Shown here piece after piece: positions 377 to 28,908 of a DNA stretch of 64,000 nucleotides. Location: the IMG/VR virus record IMGVR_UViG_3300028800_000061, positions 95,824 through 159,823 of that record. One strand, given 5' to 3'. The notes under the pieces are model-generated. The model searched no databases. It worked only from the letters and a program-made list of their open reading frames with translations, and had not been told where the DNA came from. Positions within the stretch are counted from its first letter, which is position 1; each line of letters begins with the position of its first letter. The translations under genes were made by a program, and so were the position numbers. Source of the DNA: a virus.

Positions 377-3300
377 CTATTTGGTTGCGAGCGTGAGACC
401 GTTAGTACCGTTCCTGCGGTTGTAACGCAGGGTGTACTTCTGGTCAGTAGCCTGAAGATTGCTGCCGGTCGGCCATTGCATCTTCAACGTCAAATTCAGT
501 GTCTGCTGGGAAGATGTGACACCGAACCCGCCCGCTCCTTGCGATGCGGCCAGGGCCACGCCTGTGGCCGGGTGCACAGTCCCAGGTGCAGTTGCGCTGC
601 TGAGCGCCCTCATGGCAGCAGTCACATGCGGCAGCCCGGCGATGATTCCTTGCGCGAGTCCTTGTGACACCATCATCCCGTGCTGGTACATCACCGTCGA
701 TGGCGACTTGATCCCCAGATCTTTCTTGATCTGGCTGACCATGCCTTTAGCGATCTTCGTCATTTCCTTCGTGATCGCTTTTTCTTGCGCTTCCAGCCCG
801 GATAGGAAACCCTTCCCGGCCTGGGCGCCCGAGTCATACATGGCGTTAGCGGCGGTTTGCCCAAGCGACTTAGACGCCGAAGTGATACCAGACTCGGCTT
901 TGTTGATCGCCTTAATGTTCCCCGGGACCTGCAATAGCGCCTTCGCGATGGCCAGGCCCTGCACGGGCCCGGCCTGGATGATCTGGTTGATGTAATCCTT
1001 GTTCAGCCCCAGTTTCGACAGTTGGCCGATCGCCGACTTGAACTGGTTTATCTGGGACAGGTCGGCCTGCAAGTTGGCCAGAATGTTCTGCGAGGTGATC
1101 GGCCCGCTACCCGCTGCCGACACGAGATCAAACGTGCCAGCGACGCTACTGGCCGTGTTCGTGGCGAACGTTTTCGCCTTGGAAATCGTTGACATGATCG
1201 CGGATCGTTTGGTGGCGAGGGCTTGCAGTTTGTTGTTGTCAGCCTCGATCCACTTGGTTACGTTGCTCTCCGTCTGAGAGGAGATATCGCCCGCGTCAAA
1301 CGCTTCCTTGATGTAGGTGACCAGTTTCCCGGCTGCCGATTTGACTTTCGACGCAGTTCCCTCAAGTCCCGCGACTATGCCGTTGCCGATTTCAACCGCA
1401 ATGTTCTGCATGACCTTCGACGGTGAGCTGATCCCGAGCACGCTCTTGATTGACGATATGGCCGCGCTGCCGATACTGCCTGCCGCGTCACGTACGGCCC
1501 CGAGGGACGCGGTGATTCCGTGAACGAAACCCATGATCAGGTTCTTGGCCAGGTCGTACAGCAACGTGACCGCACCGTTGAAAATGGTCCGCATCACGTT
1601 GAGGATGCCGTGGATCTCATCCGAGGTCAGTTTTTTCAGGTCGGTCCACGCTTTCGCCCAGTGCCCGGTGATGATGTCCAGGAACAGTGCGATGGCGTCG
1701 CGGATTATGGCCAGCTCGGCGCGGATTAGCGCGGCGACAGTATCCCAGACTAGTTTAACCGTGTCGCGTATCAGGCCCCACGCGATAGTCCATGCGGCTT
1801 TAATCACTGCCAGGTCGATTTTGATCGTCGCGATTATCTCGGCGAGATACGTCTTGACGATGAAACTTACAACCGCCCAGACGACCCGTGCGACCTCTTC
1901 GATTTCCTTGTGGTTCTGCTCCCACCACACCCTGAATGCTGCAATCTGCTGCTTCACAAACACAAGCGGGCCGTGAACGAACCAGTCGATCACGGCACCC
2001 GCGGCGCGCATCGCCACCGCCCAGGCGGATTTGAAAGCGTTCGCGACATCATGAACGATGTCACGGACCAGTTTGCTGTGCTCATACAGTTCGTACAGGC
2101 CAAGCGCGAGTGCGCCGATCGCAATGATCGCGACACCGACGGGGTTAGCTGAGAGAACTGCGCCAAGGCCCTCCACCGAGGCGGTGACCAGCTCCACCCC
2201 CACCGCGATAGCGATAACCGCCCCAGCGAACGCCGCCATCTTCTCGTGGTGGGAAATGAACTCCATGAACTTGTCAACCGCCCGCACGACTTTGGTGAAG
2301 ATGGGCAGCAGTTTCGTCCCGAAAGTGATGACCAGGTTCTCGACATCGGCGAGGAACTGAGTCCAGGCGAAGTGCGCTGTCTTCTCCGTCTCAGACCACG
2401 ACTTGCCGTATCCTGATACCGCCTTGCCTATGCCTTCGTACTTGGTTCTGATGTTGTCCAGATTCGACATCAGGGACAGCATGGCTTTGTCGGACCGGCC
2501 GCCGCCGAACAGTTTCGCCATGACCTGCGAGGCCTGGGCTGCTGACAGCCCGGACGCTTTGAAGGCTTTCTCCATGTCCGACAACGCGATGTAGATGCCG
2601 TCAGGTTTCCGCAGATCCGTGGCGATCTTGTTGACTGTCAGCCCGTAGGAATTCATCACATCGGCCAGCGACTTGTTTTTCAACGTGATATTGTCGGTCG
2701 CCAGTCCAAGTGACCGCAGGAACGTGTTCGCCTCCTTCGACCCTGATGTGACCATGGAAAGCCCCATGGTCAACCGGGTTGAAGCTGTCTCCGCAGTGTT
2801 ACCCCGGTCAGTCAGGTACGCCAAGGCCGCACCCATTGACCGGATCGAAATGCCCATGGCCGCGGCGGTAGGCGCCCAGTTCTTAATTGACTGGTTAAAG
2901 TTCTGGAAGCGCATGTCGCCCTGGCCGACGATCGCGTTCAGCAACCCGGCGGTCTTGGCGGCGTCACTGGTGTTCAGGTTGAACGCCTTCATCACCGATG
3001 ACAGGGCGTACGTTGTGTCTTCCAGATCGGCGCCGTGGATCTGCGCGAGCTTGGCCGAGTTGGCGACAGTCGCAAGCGAGTTACTCAGACTCAGGCCAGC
3101 GCTAATTGGGTGGTAGAGAGCCGTCGCGATGGCTGTGCCAGATTCCCCAGTCTGGTATCCGATCTGGAGGATCTTCTGGGACAGTGCGGCCATGCTTATA
3201 CCGGTCAAGTGCGCGGCGGTGTACAACTGGGTGACGGCAGCCTGAAACTTCATCGCTTTGTCGATGGAGTAACCCACGGCGACTGCGACTCCGGCGATGG

Positions 3301-4066
3301 CCAGCTTCGTTGCTGAGCCGAGTCCGGCCATCGCGCCGGCGTTCCGCTCGTTCGCGGCCGCTTCCTCGTTGGCCATATCCCGTGTCAGCCGCTCGTCCGC
3401 TGCCAGGGTCTGCTGAGCTTTCGCCGAGGTCGCCGCAGCCCGGGCGGACGCTATGTGGGCATCCCGGAGTGCCGCTTGCACCTCGAGGGCGCTCTTGGCC
3501 ATGTCCGCTTCGAGCGCCTCAGCTTCAGCGAGCTTGGATTCGGCGGCCGCCGCTTCAGCCGCCGACGCAGCCAGCGCTCTCTGCTCCTCCGCTGCTGCTG
3601 CGGCGGCGGCGCCGGCCCGCTCAGCTCCGGCAGCCGCCTCAGTTGTCGCCTCGCCGGCGGCCTGCGCACCGGCGGCGAGGCGCGCTTCCGCTGCGGCAGC
3701 CTCGGATGCGGCGTCGATTGCGCGGGCGAGCCCATCCACCAGCAGCCACTCGGCTGAGGTGAGATCTGTTTCGGCGGCGACGGTTTGCATGGCCGCGGTG
3801 GACAGTTCCTCTTGCGCCGCGGCCTGCTCGGTCGCGGCTGCTGTCGCAGCCTCGGATGCTGCGGTAGTGTCGGCGGCGCCGGTTGCGATCCCGCCCGCGC
3901 TGACCGCACCAGCGGTTGCCTCGGTTGATGCGCGAGCCAGATCTTGCACCTCAGCGATTGAGGCCATCAGCCGCTCGTTGCTGGCGATCATCTCGTCGAT
4001 GCCCGCAACCCATTTACTGGCATCCGCGACAAACTCTTCGATCGCTGGTGGCAGCAGTTCAGACAC
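377..4066 (-). CDS. tape measure protein (TP901-type core)
   Basis: 1229 aa, Ala-rich helical; core motif LSSVMKAF..GDMRF..AAAMGIS; Trp-periodic repeats; follows tail chaperones. Confidence 0.93.
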   Translation of the reverse strand: MSELLPPAIEEFVADASKWVAGIDEMIASNERLMASIAEVQDLARASTEATAGAVSAGGIATGAADTTAASEAATAAATEQAAAQEELSTAAMQTVAAETDLTSAEWLLVDGLARAIDAASEAAAAEARLAAGAQAAGEATTEAAAGAERAGAAAAAAAEEQRALAASAAEAAAAESKLAEAEALEADMAKSALEVQAALRDAHIASARAAATSAKAQQTLAADERLTRDMANEEAAANERNAGAMAGLGSATKLAIAGVAVAVGYSIDKAMKFQAAVTQLYTAAHLTGISMAALSQKILQIGYQTGESGTAIATALYHPISAGLSLSNSLATVANSAKLAQIHGADLEDTTYALSSVMKAFNLNTSDAAKTAGLLNAIVGQGDMRFQNFNQSIKNWAPTAAAMGISIRSMGAALAYLTDRGNTAETASTRLTMGLSMVTSGSKEANTFLRSLGLATDNITLKNKSLADVMNSYGLTVNKIATDLRKPDGIYIALSDMEKAFKASGLSAAQASQVMAKLFGGGRSDKAMLSLMSNLDNIRTKYEGIGKAVSGYGKSWSETEKTAHFAWTQFLADVENLVITFGTKLLPIFTKVVRAVDKFMEFISHHEKMAAFAGAVIAIAVGVELVTASVEGLGAVLSANPVGVAIIAIGALALGLYELYEHSKLVRDIVHDVANAFKSAWAVAMRAAGAVIDWFVHGPLVFVKQQIAAFRVWWEQNHKEIEEVARVVWAVVSFIVKTYLAEIIATIKIDLAVIKAAWTIAWGLIRDTVKLVWDTVAALIRAELAIIRDAIALFLDIITGHWAKAWTDLKKLTSDEIHGILNVMRTIFNGAVTLLYDLAKNLIMGFVHGITASLGAVRDAAGSIGSAAISSIKSVLGISSPSKVMQNIAVEIGNGIVAGLEGTASKVKSAAGKLVTYIKEAFDAGDISSQTESNVTKWIEADNNKLQALATKRSAIMSTISKAKTFATNTASSVAGTFDLVSAAGSGPITSQNILANLQADLSQINQFKSAIGQLSKLGLNKDYINQIIQAGPVQGLAIAKALLQVPGNIKAINKAESGITSASKSLGQTAANAMYDSGAQAGKGFLSGLEAQEKAITKEMTKIAKGMVSQIKKDLGIKSPSTVMYQHGMMVSQGLAQGIIAGLPHVTAAMRALSSATAPGTVHPATGVALAASQGAGGFGVTSSQQTLNLTLKMQWPTGSNLQATDQKYTLRYNRRNGTNGLTLATK

Positions 4067-4069
4067 GGT

Positions 4070-4504
4070 TCACGGCCTGATCACGACAGATTTGAACCGG
4101 CTCCGGGCGGTTCGGCTCAGAGCGCCGGAGGCTTCGATCCGTTCCTTGGCCGGCCGGAGATATGGCCGCGCGGGCAGCGTTGAGCCGCGGCCCGCGGTCC
4201 CTCCCAGTTCCTGTATCCGCGCGTAGGGGACAGTGCCGCCGACAGCTACCGACGACCGCGCGCCACCTGCGGGGCCCTGCTTGATGGTGATCGAGGCGCG
4301 CAAGTTCCCGCTGATCCGCGCGGGCGGCTCACCAGGCGGCGACGGCGTCGGCGTGTGAGGTGCGTGCGACCGGCGGGACAACTCGTCCCGCTGCACCTCG
4401 GAAACCATCAGGGATGCCATGGCGAGCGCGGCCGCACGCGCCCCCCAGGGTGCCCGGTCGCGTATCCTCTGCAGTTTCTCGTTGATCTCGCGGATGCTTG
4501 CCAC
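4070..4504 (-). CDS. HK97 gp10-like neck/tail completion protein
   Basis: SPPGEPPARISGNLRASI...VPYARIQELGG...LPARPYLRPA motif. Confidence 0.8.
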   Translation of the reverse strand: MASIREINEKLQRIRDRAPWGARAAALAMASLMVSEVQRDELSRRSHAPHTPTPSPPGEPPARISGNLRASITIKQGPAGGARSSVAVGGTVPYARIQELGGTAGRGSTLPARPYLRPAKERIEASGALSRTARSRFKSVVIRP

Positions 4505-4526
4505 ACCAGGTCACCCGCTTCCTGGC

Positions 4527-4754
4527 TCATTTCGGGTTGGACATGATCTGGGTGGCGTAATCGCGGGCCTCAGCGATTACCGGTGCGACAGTCGCCCAAT
4601 CGGACGGGAGTGCGTCTACTTGCTCGGGAGTCCACCCGTATCGCTCGGCGAACCAGGACCACTCGATGTACTCGTCAGGGAGCGGGCAGGCGGCGCCGGG
4701 TCGCCTGAGGAAGTAGTCGGCAAGACGCTGCCTGAGATGGTCTGGGGTTTTGGG
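4527..4754 (-). CDS. tail assembly chaperone -1 frame extension (gpGT-like)
   Basis: The -1 frame after CCCAAAA (4748-4754) reads ...DHLRQRLADYF...WFAERYGWTPEQVDALP... to TGA at 4527; GWTPEQV is typical of T domains. Confidence 0.8.
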   Translation of the reverse strand, partial: PKTPDHLRQRLADYFLRRPGAACPLPDEYIEWSWFAERYGWTPEQVDALPSDWATVAPVIAEARDYATQIMSNPK

Positions 4755-5071
4755 CCGTTCAGCACCCGGTCGTAGACCGGACGGACCGCCTGGTACAAGG
4801 CGTCCTGATCGTCCATGGAGAGGTTGTTCAGGATCGCGTCACCGTCAACCGCTTGCCCTGGCAGCGGCTGCGCCAGCGTCCAGCCGATGATCATGCGTTT
4901 CAGCAGGGCATACATGATGCGGTCTTCGAGTTCGGCGGTGAATACCCGCGACTCGTCCCCGTTGATGGTGATGGAGATCGCGCCGCGGGCAGCTCGCCGG
5001 TCTCCTCCGTTGGGCTCGTCACGCAGATCGGCGTGATTGCCGGCGGACAGTTGCACGCGCAAACCAGTCAC
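4616..5071 (-). CDS. tail assembly chaperone (gpG-like, unshifted product)
   Basis: Lies between tail tube and tape measure; contains slippery site C CCA AAA. Confidence 0.8.
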   Translation of the reverse strand: MTGLRVQLSAGNHADLRDEPNGGDRRAARGAISITINGDESRVFTAELEDRIMYALLKRMIIGWTLAQPLPGQAVDGDAILNNLSMDDQDALYQAVRPVYDRVLNGPKPQTISGSVLPTTSSGDPAPPARSLTSTSSGPGSPSDTGGLPSK

Positions 5072-7189: not shown

Positions 7190-8149
7190 TCAGATGACCC
7201 GCCGGTACGGCTGGACCAGCGCCTGAGCTTCTTTCATGTACCAGCCAGGCGTGTTCACCGAACTGTCCCCGTGACCCGGTACGGCCTGGATGGTGGTGGC
7301 CGTCGCCCCGCGCACCAGGGCCTGGGAGACAGCGAACAGGATGGCCGCTTGGATGACGGACTGCGGCAGGGTGGTGGCCATCACCCCCACCGGGTGCTTG
7401 TAGGCCAGCGGTGAGGACAGGGTGAGCAGGCCGGGCCCGGACAGTGCGGTCGCGTTGGTGACGGTGAACGTCTCCTGCGCGCCGGGGTCGTGCAAGGTGC
7501 CGGTGGCGCCGGAGACCATCCCCGGCGGCGGTCCCCACCCAGTGCAGTCGTCCACTTGAAGGGTGACGTCATCCTCTGCGGCTGCAGCGGCAAGTGACCC
7601 GTGCGGCCACCCGTTGATGTAGGTGGTTTCGACTTGGTAGCCGCTCCGGCCGCCCCACCACCACGACGCGTACCCGGGTGCGAGAAGGACCGCCGAGCCG
7701 CCATCACCGGAACCGCCAGGGCTGGTGGTGCCGTACACCCCGATGACCGGTTTCTCGATCTTGTAACCGGTCGCGGGGATCGGGTTCCACTCGGCCGGGA
7801 ATGTGACCGTCGCGGCTACCCGGCCGGAGAGCACCGCGGTTACCGGCGAGCGGGACAGCAGCAACCGTGCGATCCCGGGCCCGAACATCTGGAATCGCAG
7901 ATCTCCTGGCCCGAACAAGGTCTCGGTGTCCACCGTTGCGCGCAGCGGCTGGTTGCAGAACCCGTCGATCATCGAGGTAGCCCGGCGGCACAAGTTCAAC
8001 TGCTCATCGAATTGCTGCTGCTCGGTCGGCCTCGATCCGGCCCCCACGGTGTTCCACACCACACCTGTAGGGGCGGCGATCAGCATCGCCGGCAGTACGT
8101 ACGGGGTGCCCGGGCTGGCTGGGACACCGGCCGGGTTGTACTCATTCAC
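7190..8149 (-). CDS. head-tail adaptor/connector protein
   Basis: RRATSMIDGFCNQ...TTYINGW...LPQSVIQAAIL...LVQPYRR pattern of head-tail connectors; GTG start chosen at 8149. Confidence 0.7.
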   Translation of the reverse strand: MNEYNPAGVPASPGTPYVLPAMLIAAPTGVVWNTVGAGSRPTEQQQFDEQLNLCRRATSMIDGFCNQPLRATVDTETLFGPGDLRFQMFGPGIARLLLSRSPVTAVLSGRVAATVTFPAEWNPIPATGYKIEKPVIGVYGTTSPGGSGDGGSAVLLAPGYASWWWGGRSGYQVETTYINGWPHGSLAAAAAEDDVTLQVDDCTGWGPPPGMVSGATGTLHDPGAQETFTVTNATALSGPGLLTLSSPLAYKHPVGVMATTLPQSVIQAAILFAVSQALVRGATATTIQAVPGHGDSSVNTPGWYMKEAQALVQPYRRVI

Positions 8150-8480
8150 CGCGGGCCACAGCCAGGTCCTCGGCTGGCAGCACGAGGATCTTGAATCCCA
8201 GGCCCTGATGTTCGGCAATCTCAGTGGCCCGCTGCTGGTATTCCTGCACTTGCGCCGGGGTGCAATCCGGGGAAATCCGGACGATCAGCGTTTCGCCAGG
8301 AGCGACTACGGTGACGCACTCGCGCAGCAGATCCCGCATCTCATCTGGGGTCAGGGATGACACTGGCGGGAGCACCATGAGCCGGTGCCTGTCCTGGGAA
8401 GCCATCTGCTCCTGAAACCGGTCACGCCACTCCTCTAGCTGCGGCTGAGTGAGCCGGGCGCCGTCATCCCAACTGTCCAT
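8142..8480 (-). CDS. hypothetical protein
   Basis: Tightly packed ORF in the head-neck operon, MDSWDDGARL... Confidence 0.55.
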   Translation of the reverse strand: MDSWDDGARLTQPQLEEWRDRFQEQMASQDRHRLMVLPPVSSLTPDEMRDLLRECVTVVAPGETLIVRISPDCTPAQVQEYQQRATEIAEHQGLGFKILVLPAEDLAVARGE

Positions 8481-9782: not shown

Positions 9783-10253
9783 TCAGCCGACCAGCCGGGC
9801 GACGACCGCTGCCGCGTACACCGATGAGGCGGTGGCGTTGGCGATCGCGGTGATGTTCACCGTGTCCGTGGCGGACAGGTTGAGGATGACCGGCCCGAAC
9901 TTCACATCACCGCTCGCGCCTGTTGTGGAGATCAGGCCAAACGGGATGGGGCTCAACCTGGCGGTGCTGGTCTGGTTGAGTGCCGTGTTGTGCGAGTCGG
10001 CAGCGACTGTTGTCGTGCCCGATATGGCGACGCTGCCGGTGATCTCCCACAGTCCGGCTGTGCCAGGTGTGCAGGTGGCCACGACGGTCGCCGCAGTGGG
10101 CGCCGTCTGCTTACCTGCACCCTGAACGGTGAGCTGGCCATCTTTGTAGAACGTGACACCCTGGACGACAACACCGGGTGATGGCTGGATATAAGCCCCG
10201 CCGCCGAGTGTCTGCTCGCCCGCTGGGGTTGGGTTAGCGGTGAGGTTAGTCAC
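9783..10253 (-). CDS. putative capsid decoration protein
   Basis: AAGGAG RBS; Thr/Ala/Gly-rich beta protein immediately after capsid gene. Confidence 0.6.
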   Translation of the reverse strand: MTNLTANPTPAGEQTLGGGAYIQPSPGVVVQGVTFYKDGQLTVQGAGKQTAPTAATVVATCTPGTAGLWEITGSVAISGTTTVAADSHNTALNQTSTARLSPIPFGLISTTGASGDVKFGPVILNLSATDTVNITAIANATASSVYAAAVVARLVG

Positions 10254-10341: not shown

Positions 10342-11446
10342 TCAGGACCAGGTACCGGTCGCGCCGGAACGGTCAGACTTCTGAATTCCCTGCAGAAGAC
10401 CGCAGTAGAACGGGGCGTTCACGACGAGGCTTCCGAACAGGAACATGCTGTAACGGAACGAGGCGTCGATCACCGGCCACGAAATGCTCAGGTAATCCTG
10501 CACCGCGACGAATTCGACCACGTTGGAAACGTTGCTCCACGCGAAAGGCATCGTGTAAGACATCAGCATCGCTGTGCCTTGTGTCAGCCACGGGTGGACG
10601 ACGACTTTCAGCGGGTTGCGGGTGATCGGGTTCTGGAACTCCGAGACGGCAGCACCCAGCCGAACTCCCGGCACCTCAGCCTGCTCAACGAACAGGCGGT
10701 AAGCGCCGTTAGCGGAGCTTGAGTTGATGATGTCGTTCGACAACCGCATCACATCGCCACCTTCGGCGATGATCTCAGCCGGGTCGGCCCTGTAAGCCCC
10801 GTAGGTGTTGCCCGTTCCGTCCCACAACTGCTGCAGGGCGTTGTTCAGCACCGAGGTTTTCAGAGTGTCACCGATGGTGTTCGAGAAGTAGCCGGCTTGC
10901 CAGTTCGACGGGTAAATCGCACCACCAGTGGTTGCGGAGTGCCCCGACAGAACAGACAGCAGGCCCTCTTGGTCGTTGCTTGACGACGTTCCCGAGTCCA
11001 CCGTCGGCGCAACCGTTCCCGACACGGGCAGAGCGCCTTGCAGGGTGTAGTACTGGCCACCGACCTGCGTGACATCCAGGTAGTACGTTCCCGCGCTGGC
11101 CCCCGTGGTGACGTACAGGTTGTACCACTGGGCGCCCGCGACAGGGCTGATCTGGACATCCACAACCTGACCGGATGACCATGCGACTGACCCGCCCGTG
11201 CTGGCCGCGGTCTCACCGAAGTAGGTGTTAGCCGTGACCTTCACGAACACGTTTGTCGTCACACCGGTCAGCGGGCTCTCACCGGAGTTCGCGGAACGCG
11301 CGGTGAGCGTCGGAGTTCCCGGAGTGGAAACAGCGATCGAAGTAGCCCCAATATGCGCGGCCTCTTCGTTCAACATGAATTCCTGCAACAGCAGGAGGTT
11401 GGCGAGCGCGGAAATGTCTTCGAAGCCTTGACCTGAGAACTGTGCG
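10342..11446 (-). CDS. major capsid protein, exon 2
   Basis: Open frame from the 3' splice site: AQFSGQGFEDISALANLLLLQEFMLNEE...KVVVHPWL...FGSLVVNAPFYCGLLQG, an HK97-fold-like C-terminus. Confidence 0.85.
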
Positions 11447-11712
11447 CATTGATTGTTACTCGCCGTAAATGGCGGGACCGGTCATTTCTGCCGGTCTCTC
11501 ACGGTTTACCATCCCGTGAGATCGGACTGTCTCATAACCTGCGGCCGGTACCCCGTAATGCCCCGGGGTGTCGTCCATTGCACAGGTTCCGCACATACAG
11601 TCTCTACACGCCGGCGGGCATCGCCAGCGCTCGGGATTCCCCGTAGGTGGTGGGGTTCCCCGAACAGTGCAGTTTGCTCCGGCACCTCACGGCGCCGGGG
11701 GCCCGCTAGTTG
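11447..11712 (-). ncRNA. group I self-splicing intron (266 nt, no ORF) in major capsid gene
   Basis: 5' exon ends in U with a U-G wobble in P1 (GGCUC/GGGCC); terminal G; P2 with GUGA loop; P3 CUGCAC/GUGCGG; P4 UUCGGG/CCCGAG; P7 GACUGU/ACAGUC in GUAGAGACUGUA...AUGAGACAGUCC; removal restores the frame. Confidence 0.9.
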
Positions 11713-12482
11713 AGCCAGGACAGGTTCTCAGACAGACCCCAGAACCGGTAAGGGATCTTGAGGTCAACTGCGTCCTGTGTGCCAGTGCCTGGCAGGTTGA
11801 GTGGCCAGTTGACACTGCCACTGTTACCGGAAATCGACCCCGATCCCTGAACAAGCTCGGGGATGGCCAGACGGACGAACTTGCCACCAGACGGGCCGGT
11901 TTGTGAACCGGAAACACCGGTGATGACTTTCCGCTGCCTTGCAACACCCTGGCCAGGTGTCCTGGCCAGCTTGTTGCGGATCGGCGAATACACCGGGTAG
12001 ATGAGAGAGCTCGGTGCAACCAAGTCGAAGGGCACGAAGCCGGACGACAACGGCGACGTGAGCGTAATGCTCTTGCCGAGCGCGTCGGAAAGCTGGGTGT
12101 TCAGCTGGCCGACGAGCTGCTGCACTGCCTGGTTTTGCGGGCTGGCGGCCATGAATGCGCCGAACTGGCCAGCAAATTCCGGGCTGAGGCCCTTAATGAC
12201 CTCGGCTGGGCTTTCGATGCCCTTTTTGATCGCTGAGCGGAACGACAGTTCCGCTTTCATGCTCCGGCGGAAGATCTGGTCGTCATCGTCCAGTGGACGG
12301 TTACCACCAGGGCGGCAATAGCCGACACCCTTGACAAGGGTCGGCATCTTGTCACTCAGCATCAGGTCCGGTGAGTGGTAATTCTTTGCGTCAGCGTCGG
12401 CGTACCACGACGGGTTCGCGTCCGCGCGCTCCAGCGCAGCCTGGCCGGCTGTGCCGTAGGGAAGAACGTCAGTGCTTGTCAC
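11713..12482 (-). CDS. major capsid protein, exon 1
   Basis: FVPFDLVAPSSLIYPVYSPIRNKLARTPGQG motif; GGAGG RBS; spliced product 624 aa. Confidence 0.85.
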
Positions 12483-15468: not shown

Positions 15469-16140
15469 TCAGGCGGGCATGCAGAAGGGCCGCCCGCGGA
15501 GGACGGCCCTTCTGTCAGTTGCTGGCGGGTGGGTTAATCTCTCACCCTCGGATTGCCGCATCCGTTTATGTATGCCGTCGCGGCTGTAGCGGGTGGTGCA
15601 GGGCGGGCATGCGGGGGCGATGTTGGTGATATCGACGTTCAGGTAGTTGCCGTCGAGTTGGACGGCGAACAGTTCAGCGGTGCCGCCGATGGTCCGGCCC
15701 CACGATGCGAGCTGCCCGCACCAGTGGCACGGGTGCGGGCCCGGGCCGATCGCGTCATACAGCACTTTGCGGTGCATGTAGACGTCGCCGTTGGCGTCGG
15801 CCAGCGGGTGGGTGCGGGCTTTGACCCGGATCCGGCCGTTGAGCATGATGGCTCCGGCGCCGTTCGGGCGGCGCAGGACGATCGCAGGGTCTCCGTGTTT
15901 GCGCCAGCGGCCGTAGTGGGTGCTGCACCAGCCCAGCGATCGCGCTCGCTGGGTGCATTCCGGGAACTTGCACACAGGTGCAGGGGCTTGCCTGGGCGGA
16001 GCGATTGGGTCACCTGTGCGCCGCCACTGCTGGTAGTGCCGCCAGCAGTAGCGCATGGCAACCCAGCGTTCGGGGCATTCCGGTACGCGGCAGATCTTGT
16101 CCCCTGCTGGCAAAGTCAGAAGGCCGGGCTGGTCTGTCAC
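15469..16140 (-). CDS. HNH-endonuclease-like protein (apparently degenerate)
   Basis: Two CxxxxC..CxxHY..W repeats; YMHRKVLYDAIGPGPHPCHWCG; LDGNYLNVDITNIAPACPPC lacks the canonical His/Asn. Confidence 0.65.
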   Translation of the reverse strand: MTDQPGLLTLPAGDKICRVPECPERWVAMRYCWRHYQQWRRTGDPIAPPRQAPAPVCKFPECTQRARSLGWCSTHYGRWRKHGDPAIVLRRPNGAGAIMLNGRIRVKARTHPLADANGDVYMHRKVLYDAIGPGPHPCHWCGQLASWGRTIGGTAELFAVQLDGNYLNVDITNIAPACPPCTTRYSRDGIHKRMRQSEGERLTHPPATDRRAVLRGRPFCMPA

Positions 16141-16517
16141 GGTCCTGTCTGATCTTCTGTAGGCACAGGTGCCTGGTCCCGGCTGGCTGCGGCGTTGAAG
16201 GTGGCGAGGGCCTGTTTGGCGGCACGGTGCTGCATGTGGTCCACTCCCCGCTCGGTGAGGCACCAGCCGGTTGTGGTTACGACATCACCGCCGGGGGTCG
16301 CTTCGGCCATGAACCAGGCCCAGGACCCAATGGCTGCTTTTCTGCGCATGGTGACGGTGGCGTTCACCCGGATCGCCTGCTCACGTGCGTGAGATTGCGC
16401 GCGGGCGCTGAAAAGGTTGCAGATGGCACGTCTGCGCCGTCTCGCGATTATCATCGCGATCATGCCAAAACCGCCCGTGAGGGCCACTATGGTAACGAAT
16501 AGCCACGCAATTGTCAC
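16137..16517 (-). CDS. membrane-anchored hypothetical protein
   Basis: N-terminal hydrophobic helix followed by RRRRR. Confidence 0.55.
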   Translation of the reverse strand: MTIAWLFVTIVALTGGFGMIAMIIARRRRRAICNLFSARAQSHAREQAIRVNATVTMRRKAAIGSWAWFMAEATPGGDVVTTTGWCLTERGVDHMQHRAAKQALATFNAAASRDQAPVPTEDQTGP

Positions 16518-18383: not shown

Positions 18384-18836
18384 CCCATCGAGTACGCCAG
18401 TGAGTTGCCCTGCGGTGAGCCCACCCGCAACCGCAGCGAGAAGGGCTTGCTCCAGCCGTGTCACCCGCGTTGCCACCAGGCCGCCCACCCGCCGGTCACC
18501 CTCGTCAAGGATCGACTGCAGTGAGCTGTCCGGCGCGTCCAGGTCGATGCTGGTGATCTGGACGGCCGAGTTCCGGCCGAGCCGCCAGCCGTCCGCCCAC
18601 AACTCCCGCATGATCCTGGTGAGCGCCACAGTTAGCGCTGCGGTAACCCCGGTTCGTTGCAGGTACCGTTTCGGGCCACGCGGCCGCGCTGCTGCACCTG
18701 CCCCGTTGCCGCTAGCCAGCCACCCGGCAGCGAAATCGGCGGGCAAAACGCCCTGCAGTTCCCTGGCGAGCCGGCCAGCGTACTGGGCTGCTAGCTGCCG
18801 GTCCCGCTCCCACCCGGGCCAGTCAGGGCTTTTGGG
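18090..18836 (-). CDS. Mu gpF-like minor head protein domain (probably reached by -1 frameshift from portal)
   Basis: TQTEV...WATAGDATVCAVC...PPAHPNCRC; frame opens at CCCAAAA (18830-18836) two codons after a TGA. Confidence 0.8.
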   Translation of the reverse strand, partial: PKSPDWPGWERDRQLAAQYAGRLARELQGVLPADFAAGWLASGNGAGAAARPRGPKRYLQRTGVTAALTVALTRIMRELWADGWRLGRNSAVQITSIDLDAPDSSLQSILDEGDRRVGGLVATRVTRLEQALLAAVAGGLTAGQLTGVLDGLLGNEPAALVVTQTEVTWSMSLAALAYYQQARIAAVGWATAGDATVCAVCDGNEAAGLIPVGDEFPSGDDQPPAHPNCRCSLYPGDTGQSMMPADVI

Positions 18837-21298
18837 CTGCCATCATCCCCGCCACCCTTGTTGAGCTTGGCCCGGTTCATCGCCCCGTCCCACGGCCCGG
18901 TGTCCGTGCCCACAACACCGACCCATGCGAGGGTGCTTGTTTTGCCTGCCCGTTTGAGAGCGAGAGTCCGGTGCCAGCCGTCAGCGATCTCGTACTTCGC
19001 CTGGCCGGGTACTTTCACCAGCACGACCGGCGCGAGTTGCGTCCCGGCCCGGATGGATGCGGCGATCGCTTCTACTTTCGCCGGGTTGCGTGCACCGCCC
19101 GGGCGGCGGGCCATCTCGATCCGGGACAGTGCCACGGATACCGGCCCATGCCACCGTGCATCTTTGACCCACTCCAGCACGGCGGCCGGGTAGTGCCGTG
19201 CCAGGTACGCGTACACCTCATGTGTCAGATCGGCGTGGCTGGTCTGCGCCGCGATCTCTGCTGTGCTCTTGGTGCTCAGCATCGACCGGGCTACATCGCA
19301 CACCTGATCGGCGGTCAAGCCCTTGCCCAGGTCCTCCTCGATGCTGGCGAGCAGTGCAGCGGGCAGATCTTGCGGCGCCCACCCGGTGACTGTGCCGCCT
19401 TTGCGCAGGTGATTGCGCAGCAGATCCAGTTCTCGCAGTTGCCCTTTCCTCGCGGAGGTTGGAGTGGCGTTCGCGGAGCCGACCGCACCGGAGCGCGCAC
19501 CGGAGTGCGCCGGGGTGCCCCGGCCGGACTGGCTGACCGCGCCGCCGATTGCCCGCGGTGCCGGCTGCTGGGCGACCGTGGCGGGCCCCGCTGGTGGCGC
19601 CTGCTGCGGGGCGGTCGACGGGCCGCTTGTTCCTGCGATCTGCGCTGGATCCAGCGGTGCAGGTGTGGGCCGGGAGCCGGTGACCTGCGGTGCGGTCGGC
19701 GCACCAGCGAACGGGACGAAACCCTCGCGGACAGTCGCCCATCCAGGGTCGGAGGTGACAGGAAGGTTCCACGGGTCGCGGCCCAGCTCGACACGGGCCT
19801 CATCGACGGAGCACAATCCTGCGCTAATCTGCTCCACAAGAAGGGTTGTCAGAGTGGCGGCGTCTTCATCTTCTTCCAATCCTTCCCATTGCCACTCAAG
19901 GTCTTCCTGCCCGCACACATCTTGCAAGATCCTGTCGAATACCGCGGCCTTCAGCCACATTAGCAAGGGGACGGTTCCCTTGCGCTCCTGAATGTCCTGC
20001 CCGGCTTTCGCCATCTGGTTCGCCGCACCGACACTCTGGGTCGCGGAGACACGCGGTGAGATGCCCAGTTCCATGGGCATGACGGAGAACGCCATGCACA
20101 CCTGGGTCATGATGATCTCATCGAACTGGTCGGCCAGGCTCGCGGGCTTCTGCGGGTCCACTTTCGACCCGCCTGGGAGAACAATGATTTTGTGCTTCCA
20201 TGCTTGATCACCGGCAAGGGCATTCAGCGCGTCTTGAAGCTCCCGGATCTGCTGCGGGGTCATGTTCGTGTCACCCGGCGAAACGAACAGGCCAGGAATG
20301 GATCCCTCTTGGAAAAAGTTCAGCTGATACTGCTGCCGGTTCAACCCAGCCATGACCGGGATAATCGCCCGCTCAATGGGCGCCTGACCGTACGGTGTCC
20401 ACGTGCGGGCGGTGTACGGCAGGTACATCAGCTGATCGCCCCGGTACTCCGCGATGAGCCCGTCATCTGCGGTTTCCTCAACCAGCAGCGTCATCAGGTC
20501 CACACGCGGGACACCGTATTCGTATTGCTGATAGGCTGGGTTGGGCGGTGCTGGCACTCCGCCAAGCACATCCACCAGTGGCCGGATAAGTGTCCCGTCG
20601 ATAAGATCTAGCGCGGCCACGTTTGATCCGAGCAGGCCCTTGTTCCGCACTTTCGACGGGTGCACGTACAGCGCCAGGGCGTCGGTAACGAACACTTCCT
20701 CAAGCAACGCGTCGAACCATGAGGAAAAATCGCCGTAGCGCGGATCGGGCTGGCGGAAGAACTTGACAGCCTGCGCCCTGCGCTCCGCGAAGTCGGCCAT
20801 GCCGCTGTGCGAGCCCCGCAACGATTTCGCGGCGTCCCTTGTCAGGGCAATGTTCCACCCGACGCCACGCAACTCCGATTTGCGCAATTCGATGCACGCA
20901 CGGGCGACACTGTACAGGTCCGCGAGAGTCCGCAGAGTCTGGAAGTCGGCGAGCTTTCCAAGGCCTTCCGTGCCGGGCATGCCCATAGGCATGTCCCAGC
21001 CGATCGGGTACTGGAAGCGCCTTATCGGCGGCCTTTCCTCACCCGGTTCCGGAGTGTCAATCGGGACTGGCTCTATGGGGGCGAGCGGCCCGAACATGCC
21101 GGACAGGAATGTTCGCCAGTCTCGTGGCAGCCCGCCGTGCTGGCCGGCTGACCGGCCGGAGGTCCACTCGTTGTAAGAGGCAACGAGCGGGGACGGGCCC
21201 GGGCTGATCGACGGCGGTGTGACCGTGGCGAATCCGCCTGACCGGCCAGCGGCTGTCGCTTTCAGGGTGCGGGTGATGGCGCGCAGGTCCGTGGGCAC
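18791..21298 (-). CDS. portal protein with C-terminal ParB-N-like domain
   Basis: LRTLADLYSVARACIELRK, PYGQAPIE, FFQEGSIPG, VCMAFSVMPMELG, SVDEARVELG; C-terminal APVVLV...YEIADGWHR. Confidence 0.9.
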   Translation of the reverse strand: MPTDLRAITRTLKATAAGRSGGFATVTPPSISPGPSPLVASYNEWTSGRSAGQHGGLPRDWRTFLSGMFGPLAPIEPVPIDTPEPGEERPPIRRFQYPIGWDMPMGMPGTEGLGKLADFQTLRTLADLYSVARACIELRKSELRGVGWNIALTRDAAKSLRGSHSGMADFAERRAQAVKFFRQPDPRYGDFSSWFDALLEEVFVTDALALYVHPSKVRNKGLLGSNVAALDLIDGTLIRPLVDVLGGVPAPPNPAYQQYEYGVPRVDLMTLLVEETADDGLIAEYRGDQLMYLPYTARTWTPYGQAPIERAIIPVMAGLNRQQYQLNFFQEGSIPGLFVSPGDTNMTPQQIRELQDALNALAGDQAWKHKIIVLPGGSKVDPQKPASLADQFDEIIMTQVCMAFSVMPMELGISPRVSATQSVGAANQMAKAGQDIQERKGTVPLLMWLKAAVFDRILQDVCGQEDLEWQWEGLEEDEDAATLTTLLVEQISAGLCSVDEARVELGRDPWNLPVTSDPGWATVREGFVPFAGAPTAPQVTGSRPTPAPLDPAQIAGTSGPSTAPQQAPPAGPATVAQQPAPRAIGGAVSQSGRGTPAHSGARSGAVGSANATPTSARKGQLRELDLLRNHLRKGGTVTGWAPQDLPAALLASIEEDLGKGLTADQVCDVARSMLSTKSTAEIAAQTSHADLTHEVYAYLARHYPAAVLEWVKDARWHGPVSVALSRIEMARRPGGARNPAKVEAIAASIRAGTQLAPVVLVKVPGQAKYEIADGWHRTLALKRAGKTSTLAWVGVVGTDTGPWDGAMNRAKLNKGGGDDGSPKALTGPGGSGTGS

Positions 21299-28104: not shown

Positions 28105-28355
28105 TTCAGATCGTGTTCGCGGCTCTTCGAATCAGCCCCGCGATCCCGTTCCGATCGGGGATGGTGACCATCCCCGGCCCCGATCACGTTCCGATCCCGG
28201 ATCGCGCTCCGATCTGCCCTCGGAACGTGATCCCCGATCCGCCGATCGCACTCAGATCGCCCGCGGCGAGCGAGCACCACCGGTCCACGACCACCCGCGG
28301 CCCGCCCGCCCAATCATGATTAGAACTTTTTCAACCCGGATCGCGTTCAGATCTG
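28105..28355. repeat. second GATC-dense non-coding tract
   Basis: About 13 GATC in about 250 bp, many 11 bp apart; TCATGATTAGAA at 28314. Confidence 0.75.
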
Positions 28356-28413
28356 CCCCCGAATGCCCGTGCGGCTCGCGAGCCGGCGTGACCCGCGAGC
28401 CGCACAAACCCGG

Positions 28414-28908
28414 TCAGGACCGCTTGTCCTCCATGCGGTTCAAGAGCGCCAGGCCGGCACCGACCGGGTTCTGCTCCTGAAACGCGCCGATGACCGCCGC
28501 CAGCATGTGGTTGTACTCACGATCGAACAGCTCCCGCTCCAGTGAGGTGCCGAAATCCACCGGGGAGCCGCCGGCGAGCGCTTCCTCCTGGTCCCACCGG
28601 GTGAACAGCAACTCCGCGGTGGCGGTGTTGAAGAACCACCAGTCGAGGTCCTCGTGGATAACCTGCGTGCGCTGCCGGGCCCCTTCGACCAGCGCTGCCG
28701 CCAACTCCGCGACCGGACCCTCATGCGCGCTCCGCACCTGGAAAGAGAGCCACTGCGCCCGCAGATTGTAAGCGCGAGCCAACGATTCGCTGACCCGCTC
28801 CAGGCGGATGACTCTATCGTTCACCGCATCCCGGAACCGCTTATCCGCCGCCTCCAAGATCTCCGACACCGTACGCTCCGCCTGCGTACCTGACTGCGCA
28901 CCACTCAT
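28414..28908 (-). CDS. hypothetical helical protein
   Basis: GGAGGT RBS downstream of operator copy 4. Confidence 0.65.
   Translation of the reverse strand: MSGAQSGTQAERTVSEILEAADKRFRDAVNDRVIRLERVSESLARAYNLRAQWLSFQVRSAHEGPVAELAAALVEGARQRTQVIHEDLDWWFFNTATAELLFTRWDQEEALAGGSPVDFGTSLERELFDREYNHMLAAVIGAFQEQNPVGAGLALLNRMEDKRS

Follow-up and report, generated by a model that had tools for sequence, protein, structure and literature searches.

The 266 nt at positions 11712..11447 of the DNA analysed here very probably form a group I intron without an open reading frame of its own, inserted in what is probably the single major capsid gene of a phage. The analysed stretch, referred to as the window, comprises 64,000 nucleotides, corresponding to positions 95,824 to 159,823 of the IMG/VR record IMGVR_UViG_3300028800_000061, which is a metagenomic assembly. 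The phage has a high-GC genome of 160 kb, and the gene split by the intron, probably its only one for the major capsid protein, is located on the minus strand. As judged by full-length RNA homology, the intron is a further member of the lineage that contains the BAKA intron, for which splicing has been proven by RT-PCR. That this gene is interrupted by a group I intron, compact and without an ORF, had been proposed in a preliminary description of the DNA. The proposal was borne out by the exact insertion into the probable capsid gene, by the covarying core and by the homology to the BAKA intron and to introns that are recognised by RF00028.

Exons and splice junction

The 3' end of exon 1 reads TCC TGG CT and the 5' end of exon 2 reads C GCA CAG, which places the insertion point inside the motif SENLSW-L-AQFSGQGFED with the Leu codon split as CT|C. 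The insert of 266 nt, 11712..11447 on the minus strand, starts with CAACTAG and finishes with ATCAATG. In the unspliced frame a TAG was met at 11708..11706, and the open reading frame from the GTG at 12482 accordingly finishes with SENLSWLN followed by the stop. A second open frame starts within the gap; from 11445 downward it reads AQFSGQGFEDISAL and it reaches its stop at 10342. Together, exons 1 and 2 comprise 625 codons including the stop, corresponding to a product of 624 aa.

Both pieces matched the same protein family, phrog_13692, the first at profile positions 13-84 and the second at positions 123-490 (E 1.6e-37). The second piece was searched against a set of 5.8 billion proteins, which yielded 817 homologs, many of them 600-634 aa long, and alignments were made with 11 and then with 30 sequences. 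P0003 (622 aa, 87-92% identical) and approx. 30 other uninterrupted homologs were gapless at the junction with SENLSWLAQFSGQGFEDISA; the uninterrupted reading across the junction was SENLSWLAQFSGQGFED, or PYRFWGLSENLSWLAQFSGQGFEDISALANL in its longer context. Exon 1 was 92% identical to residues 2-257 of P0003 and exon 2 was 87% identical to residues 254-622. As the uninterrupted homologs are gapless at this point, the boundaries of the insert are exact to the base, and the removal of 11712..11447 exactly restores the family sequence. The preliminary description had given the same coordinates, junction, stop codon and length of 624 aa, all of which were correct according to the exon reading and the uninterrupted homologs, and the contiguous reading that it expected in intron-less homologs was found in P0003 and the approx. 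30 others. No extra small gaps ("mini-introns") were detected in the exons of the window; the alignment to P0003 was continuous across residues 2-257 and across residues 254-622. A junction-spanning tryptic peptide of the spliced capsid protein would cover NLSWLAQFSGQGFEDISALANLLLLQEFMLNEEAAHIGATSIAVSTPGTPTLTAR or an equivalent.

Identity of the interrupted gene

Remote homology and gene order indicated that the interrupted gene probably encodes the major capsid protein. The Pfam family SU10_MCP was matched below its cut-off, with E values of 9e-4 to 9e-5, in 12 of 30 homologs. Additionally, gp6 of Arthrobacter phage Mufasa8, annotated as "major capsid protein", was matched with E 4e-6 and 25% identity in an alignment that covered 95% of exon 2. 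A profile and sequence search of the PDB with the capsid protein gave no meaningful match, and an AlphaFold2 model of P0003 based on 30 sequences was poor, with a pLDDT of 45. The order of the genes was portal, MuF-like region, HNH, protease/scaffold, capsid gene, head-tail adaptor and tape measure (Table 1).

Flanked by the MuF-like region and the protease/scaffold gene, the HNH gene lies 3.8 kb upstream of the intron; its product may have to do with packaging or may be a free-standing homing endonuclease. Inside the protease/scaffold fusion, a stretch of CxxC..CxxC motifs (CGTCKGDG..CPDCKGSG..CKGCG..CGGCG) is reminiscent of a zinc ribbon or a DnaJ-type finger, which is unusual in a scaffold. 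Directly after the capsid gene, the related loci L203-L205 carry genes for a glycosyltransferase (Glycos_transf_1; 2688-3863) and a NAD-dependent epimerase/dehydratase (3860 onward), which hints at virion glycosylation in these related phages. Where L203-L205 have the glycosyltransferase gene, the window has an ORF of 156 aa without a known family (9783-10253).

Table 1. Positions of the genes, exons and intron elements in the window.
Feature	Position	Strand	Remarks
Tape measure gene	377-4066		
Head-tail adaptor gene	7190-8218		
Capsid gene, exon 2	11446..10342	minus	367 codons from AQFSGQGFED, preceded by the last base of the split Leu codon and followed by the stop
Group I intron (probable), 266 nt, ORF-less	11447..11712	minus	294.4 bits with model R1; covariation
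3' tail AGUAACAAUCAAUG with terminal G11447	11447..11460	minus	(G)AGUAACA motif conserved in the intron family
P9, P9.1 and P9.2	11461..11521	minus	conserved P9 loop GAUGGUAAA; GAAA loop of P9.1 in conserved CAGAAAUGA
J8/7 AUGAG and P7 3' strand ACAGUCC	11524..11535	minus	
P8 and its extension	11536..11588	minus	AACCUGU/GCAGGUU, GG/CC, ACCCCG/CGGGGU
P3 3' strand GUGCGG	11589..11594	minus	abuts P8, no P7.1/P7.2 between
J6/7 GUA and P7 5' strand	11597..11607	minus	G11604, bulged A11603, G11602, then ACUGU
P6 hairpin	11608..11630	minus	directly after P4
P4, J4/5, P5 and J5/4	11631..11663	minus	P4 UCGGGG/UCCCGA, J4/5 AA, P5 CCCC/GGGG, J5/4 AA
P3 5' strand CUGCAC	11667..11672	minus	partner 11594..11589; 100% of cells paired, 3/6 pairs compensatory
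P2 hairpin, 8 bp	11679..11698	minus	GNRA loop GUGA; compensatory changes at 8/8 pairs
P1	11700..11716	minus	exon GGCU (11716..11713) and intron C1 (11712) with guide GGGCC (11704..11700)
P10 guide GCG	11704..11706	minus	pairs with exon 2 CGC (11446..11444)
Capsid gene, exon 1	12482..11713	minus	GTG start at 12482, 256 codons and CT of Leu codon 257, ends in SENLSW
Protease/scaffold fusion gene, 969 aa	12516-15425	minus	N-terminal match to head maturation protease
HNH endonuclease gene, free-standing	15469-16263	minus	phrog_5351, 9443, 1271
Portal gene	18791-21298		

Secondary structure of the intron

The pairing of P7 across the 3' strand of P3 forms a pseudoknot, and this P3/P7 pseudoknot defines the group I core. 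The intron of the window shows it within the complete helix order P3-P4-P5-P6-P7-P3'-P8-P7'-P9. At the 5' splice site U11713 pairs with G11703, which is the U.G wobble of P1, and the in-frame stop UAG (11708..11706) lies inside the loop of P1. This wobble and the terminal G, noted already in the preliminary description, were thus identified as U11713.G11703 and G11447. P10 consists of 3 bp in the window; it covaries in the related insert at locus L004, where it is CUG/CAG, and has 0-2 bp in some relatives.

J3/4 reads UGU. In P4 and P5 99% of the cells were paired across the related introns and 5 of 10 pairs showed compensatory changes; the two helices were collinear with P4/P5 of RF00028 in the insert of L016. 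The motif GUAGAGA was found in 9 of 12 distinct introns. Adjoining the bulged A11603, the pair G11602-C11525 of P7 did not vary in any of the 12 introns; by analogy with G264-C311 of Tetrahymena we take it to be the guanosine-binding site. The motifs of P9 and P9.1 are common to the BAKA intron and the RF00028-positive capsid introns. No Pfam match was obtained for ORFs inside the 266 nt and therefore no endonuclease is encoded by the intron.

Covariation of the fold

The transcript of 283 nt was predicted to fold with -130 kcal/mol, corresponding to z = -5.0 against dinucleotide shuffles. An insert at L004, also of 283 nt, could be aligned to the intron of the window with 58% identity, and the differences were largely compensatory. 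RNAalifold on these two sequences gave 71 pairs, 26 of which had compensatory double changes. From this pair of sequences, aligned solely with MAFFT, the full group I fold was assigned by hand.

The analysis was extended to 12 distinct related introns, the BAKA intron included. Their alignment was fitted to the model and is thereby biased toward the structure; in it 97.7% of the cells paired, as compared with 33-42% when the partners were slid by 1-3 columns. Compensatory changes were seen at 50 of the 71 pairs, and none of 500 shuffles matched any of the observed measures. The pairs of P7 lie outside the model, and 4 of these 6 pairs changed in a compensatory manner among the 12 introns. Helices P1-P4 and P6-P8, which had been pointed out before from the single sequence, hence exist and covary in the 12 introns.

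Each of the 10 relatives that were examined had a U at position -1 and a guide fitting its particular exon, and all relatives examined ended in G, like G11447. The intron of the window matched 58 of the 60 columns that were invariant in its relatives; of the two exceptions, one was a C-G pair changed to U.G, which still pairs, and the other a position in the loop L5. This conservation bears on the question whether the insert could be a dead intron, i.e. a non-splicing descendant of a group I intron that would have inactivated the capsid gene and left a defective phage. RF00028 gives no score to the sequence, and splicing was predicted from the sequence of a metagenomic assembly, both of which would fit such a relic. 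We nevertheless consider it quite improbable, as all core helices pair, the guanosine site, the U.G wobble, the terminal G and P10 are intact, and the family-invariant columns are matched as described. Moreover, neither exon contains a stop or a frameshift and both are under purifying selection, with dN/dS of 0.10-0.16 against four relatives, and no second copy of the capsid gene was found in the 159.8-kb record, which is 98% complete according to CheckV, so that the interrupted gene is the sole one.

Detection with RF00028 and with a model of the lineage

The preliminary description had put forward an Infernal search with group I covariance models as a check, and with RF00028 this check gave no support. 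Rfam produced no group I match in the entire window at its gathering thresholds or at E<=10 over 751 nt and 286 nt, and RF00028 did not match on the whole 159.8-kb genome. The gathering threshold of RF00028 is 50 bits, and the BAKA intron scored 28.6 bits, i.e. below the threshold. Because the RT-PCR-proven BAKA intron also misses RF00028, we concluded that the miss is a property of the sub-lineage and not evidence against a group I intron.

We constructed a covariance model, R1, from the insert of the window and that of L004 with the hand-assigned structure minus the pseudoknot. R1 matched one place only, in the window as well as in the 159.8-kb record. For comparison, 83 loci encoding the capsid family were fetched (602 kb) and P0003 was mapped onto them; here R1 gave 49 matches, all on the gene strand. 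Six inserts passed RF00028 (L016, L057, L080, L019, L014 and L023), with 52-66 bits in that model and 55-91 bits in R1. The alignments of L057 and L016 were collinear from P3 to P9 and continued through the 3' domain of P9.1, P9.2 and GAGUAACA, a domain that is missing from the Rfam model. Neither the gene, by megablast, nor the intron, by blastn, had a match among 50,697 phage records. A 15-mer core pattern had 117 loci in viral_contigs, which were judged to be mostly chance matches and were not used.

That no Rfam family matches the sequence would also be expected if the insert were something other than a group I intron, such as a MITE-like element, a group II intron, an element for translational bypass or an artefact of the assembly. 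We regard this as extremely improbable. At 266 nt the insert has the group I helix order together with covariation and lacks the GUGYG 5' end and domain V, which speaks against a bypass element and a group II intron; in addition, homologous inserts recurred among assemblies independent of one another, in every case on the gene strand, with a U before them and a G at their end.

Relation to known introns

Among phage group I introns the classical examples, those in td, nrdB and sunY of T4, in SPO1's DNA polymerase gene and in orf142 of Twort, belong to subgroup IA2. The intron of the window resembles them in being of the self-splicing type and in interrupting an essential gene of the phage at a place where the coding sequence is highly conserved. 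Unlike them it lacks a homing-endonuclease ORF and is found in a virion gene instead of a DNA-metabolism gene, in a high-GC phage. It also lacks P7.1/P7.2 between P3' and P8, the feature of subgroup IA2 (Michel & Westhof 1990). The tRNA introns of the Azoarcus type (IC3), to which the preliminary description had likened the intron, are similar by description, being small and ORF-less, without P5abc and with a GNRA loop on P2, but differ by description in that the intron of the window has the additional hairpins P9.1 and P9.2 and the extension of P8.

Two introns have been described in Cluster J mycobacteriophages, with RT-PCR and sequencing showing the removal of each (Pope et al. 2013, PLoS One 8:e69273, PMC3706429). 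The intron in the minor tail protein gene of BAKA and Optimus is ORF-less, has 265 nt at 28,186-28,450 and was confirmed to splice by RT-PCR (PMC3706429). R1 matched it in BAKA (L201, JF937090) at 28,189-28,450 with 156.6 bits (E 5e-46) over model positions 1-284, and the match ended on the published 3' G. The BAKA intron and that of the window are of the same size class, ORF-less, inserted after a U and terminated by a G, with full-length homologous RNA; common to both are GAUGGUAAA as the loop of P9, CAGAAAUGA within P9.1 and GAGUAACA as the tail, and they reside in late structural genes of phages of high-GC Actinobacteria. They differ in that the aligned identity is 56%, that the BAKA intron is located in a tail gene and the intron of the window in a capsid gene, and that the phages belong to different lineages with unrelated capsid families; splicing was demonstrated by RT-PCR for BAKA and is predicted from sequence for the window.

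The second intron, in the capsid gene of LittleE, bears a homing-endonuclease gene (HEG) and was inferred to splice efficiently (PMC3706429); its 5' part is related to the BAKA intron. The capsid location had previously been called less common for phage introns. Such a location is, however, already known from LittleE, and Tuc2009 has been cited as well (PMC3706429). The sister introns that are RF00028-positive agree with the intron of the window in capsid family, helix order and 3' domain, but their sites are different (approx. aa 153-165, 243/244 and 575-600) and details of P5 and P8 differ.

Proposed splicing reaction

According to the fold, the late transcript would form the group I core and react by textbook group I chemistry. 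Free guanosine would bind to the G11602-C11525 pair of P7, beside the bulged A11603, and would attack the bond after U11713, which would be held in P1 by its U.G pair with the guide GGGCC. Thereafter the terminal G11447 would occupy the same guanosine site, and the freed end of exon 1 would attack the 3' splice site, which P10 (GCG/CGC) would align. The exons would thus be joined as SENLSW-L-AQFSG, giving the mRNA for the capsid protein of 624 aa. Without splicing, translation would stop at UAG 11708..11706 after a fragment of 258 aa, so that the ribozyme should be required for virions to be produced. The spliced junction, searched as an exact 29-mer, was absent from metagenome_contigs, a collection in which few samples would hold the RNA of the phage.

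Some group I introns require protein cofactors in vivo, and peripheral elements normally stabilise the autonomous folding of an intron. The intron of the window encodes no protein, and a true group I intron that needs a phage or host protein of the maturase or chaperone type, which would gate the capsid output in the manner of a "checkpoint", is conceivable. The free-standing HNH gene 3.8 kb upstream might be thought of here, although no role in splicing is known for it. We regard this dependence as very improbable: the sequence gives no sign of a cofactor, the peripheral stabilisers are conserved (the GNRA loop L2, the GAAA loop L9.1 and the L9 motif), and no dedicated factor was named for LittleE, inferred to be efficient, or for BAKA, confirmed to splice (PMC3706429). 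Apart from the need for splicing in order to make the capsid protein, nothing was found in support of the regulatory checkpoint that had been suggested from the sequence. Autonomous splicing of the insert by the reaction above is the reading we favour.

Intron sites among sister capsid genes

Interruptions were seen in no fewer than 16 of the 83 loci, at approx. 10 positions and often more than once per gene. Loci L019/L020 had five matches (848-1153, 1399-1597, 2456-2669, 2725-3000 and 3952-4225), L023 likewise had five (2007-2314, 2573-2963, 3954-4222, 4259-4560 and 4606-4913), and four group I intron matches were located in the capsid gene of L014.

In the numbering of P0003, close relatives of the intron were found at F246 (L203-L206), L249 (L045), G261|Q262 (L004, L019) and F264 (L003), with the intron of the window at L256; further sites were V325 (L003), L574 (L023, L019, L211, L212) and positions near residues 163-166 and 589. 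The five sites F246, L249, L256, G261|Q262 and F264 fall within 57 nt, in the most conserved motif of the protein (residues 246-264). Among the loci examined, site L256 was found only in the window. All sites examined follow G-(G/C)-U or C-C-U, and the five clustered sites each follow G-(G/C)-U. In relatives at other sites, P1 with its U.G pair and P10 change with the exon context. The close relatives (56-81% identical) occupied at least 7 sites of the same capsid gene; those nearest to the intron of the window (72-76% identical) were located at L574 and L249 and not at L256.

Larger introns of the same lineage, at L024:1519-2607 and L042:1951-2874, encode proteins of 307-362 aa with the domains DUF559 (a Vsr-like endonuclease), HTH and NUMOD3, and in both loci R1 matches flank the ORFs. 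These proteins are likely homing endonucleases.

The pattern of sites fits reverse splicing or a repeated ectopic insertion assisted by endonucleases. That the ORF-less lineage spreads by reverse splicing through its internal guide of 4-6 nt, and not by endonuclease homing, is a possibility that we put forward tentatively and hold to be rather unlikely.

Discussion

Introns of this kind are already known, and the intron of the window adds one member. As had been predicted, gene callers split the capsid gene, and half-length ORFs are present in public protein sets. Many "hypothetical proteins" of 340-440 aa from the capsid family are found there (P0004, P0005, P0018, P0020 and others); P0004, P0005 and P0020 are ORFs of 383-384 aa. 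Such proteins may be exon-only fragments that result from gene callers stopping at introns, and for P0004 and P0020 the origin as exon fragments was checked in the DNA. As RF00028 misses a sub-lineage that includes the proven BAKA member, too few introns of this type are annotated in high-GC phages; those that Rfam misses would be recovered with a model such as R1.

Both the density and the turnover of intron sites are unusual in the capsid family, which could be used to study the movement of ORF-less group I introns. If reverse splicing were true, the family would document, in nature, the transposition of phage group I introns to ectopic sites. For the phage itself the intron would mean that its most abundant virion protein is made only after the action of a ribozyme.
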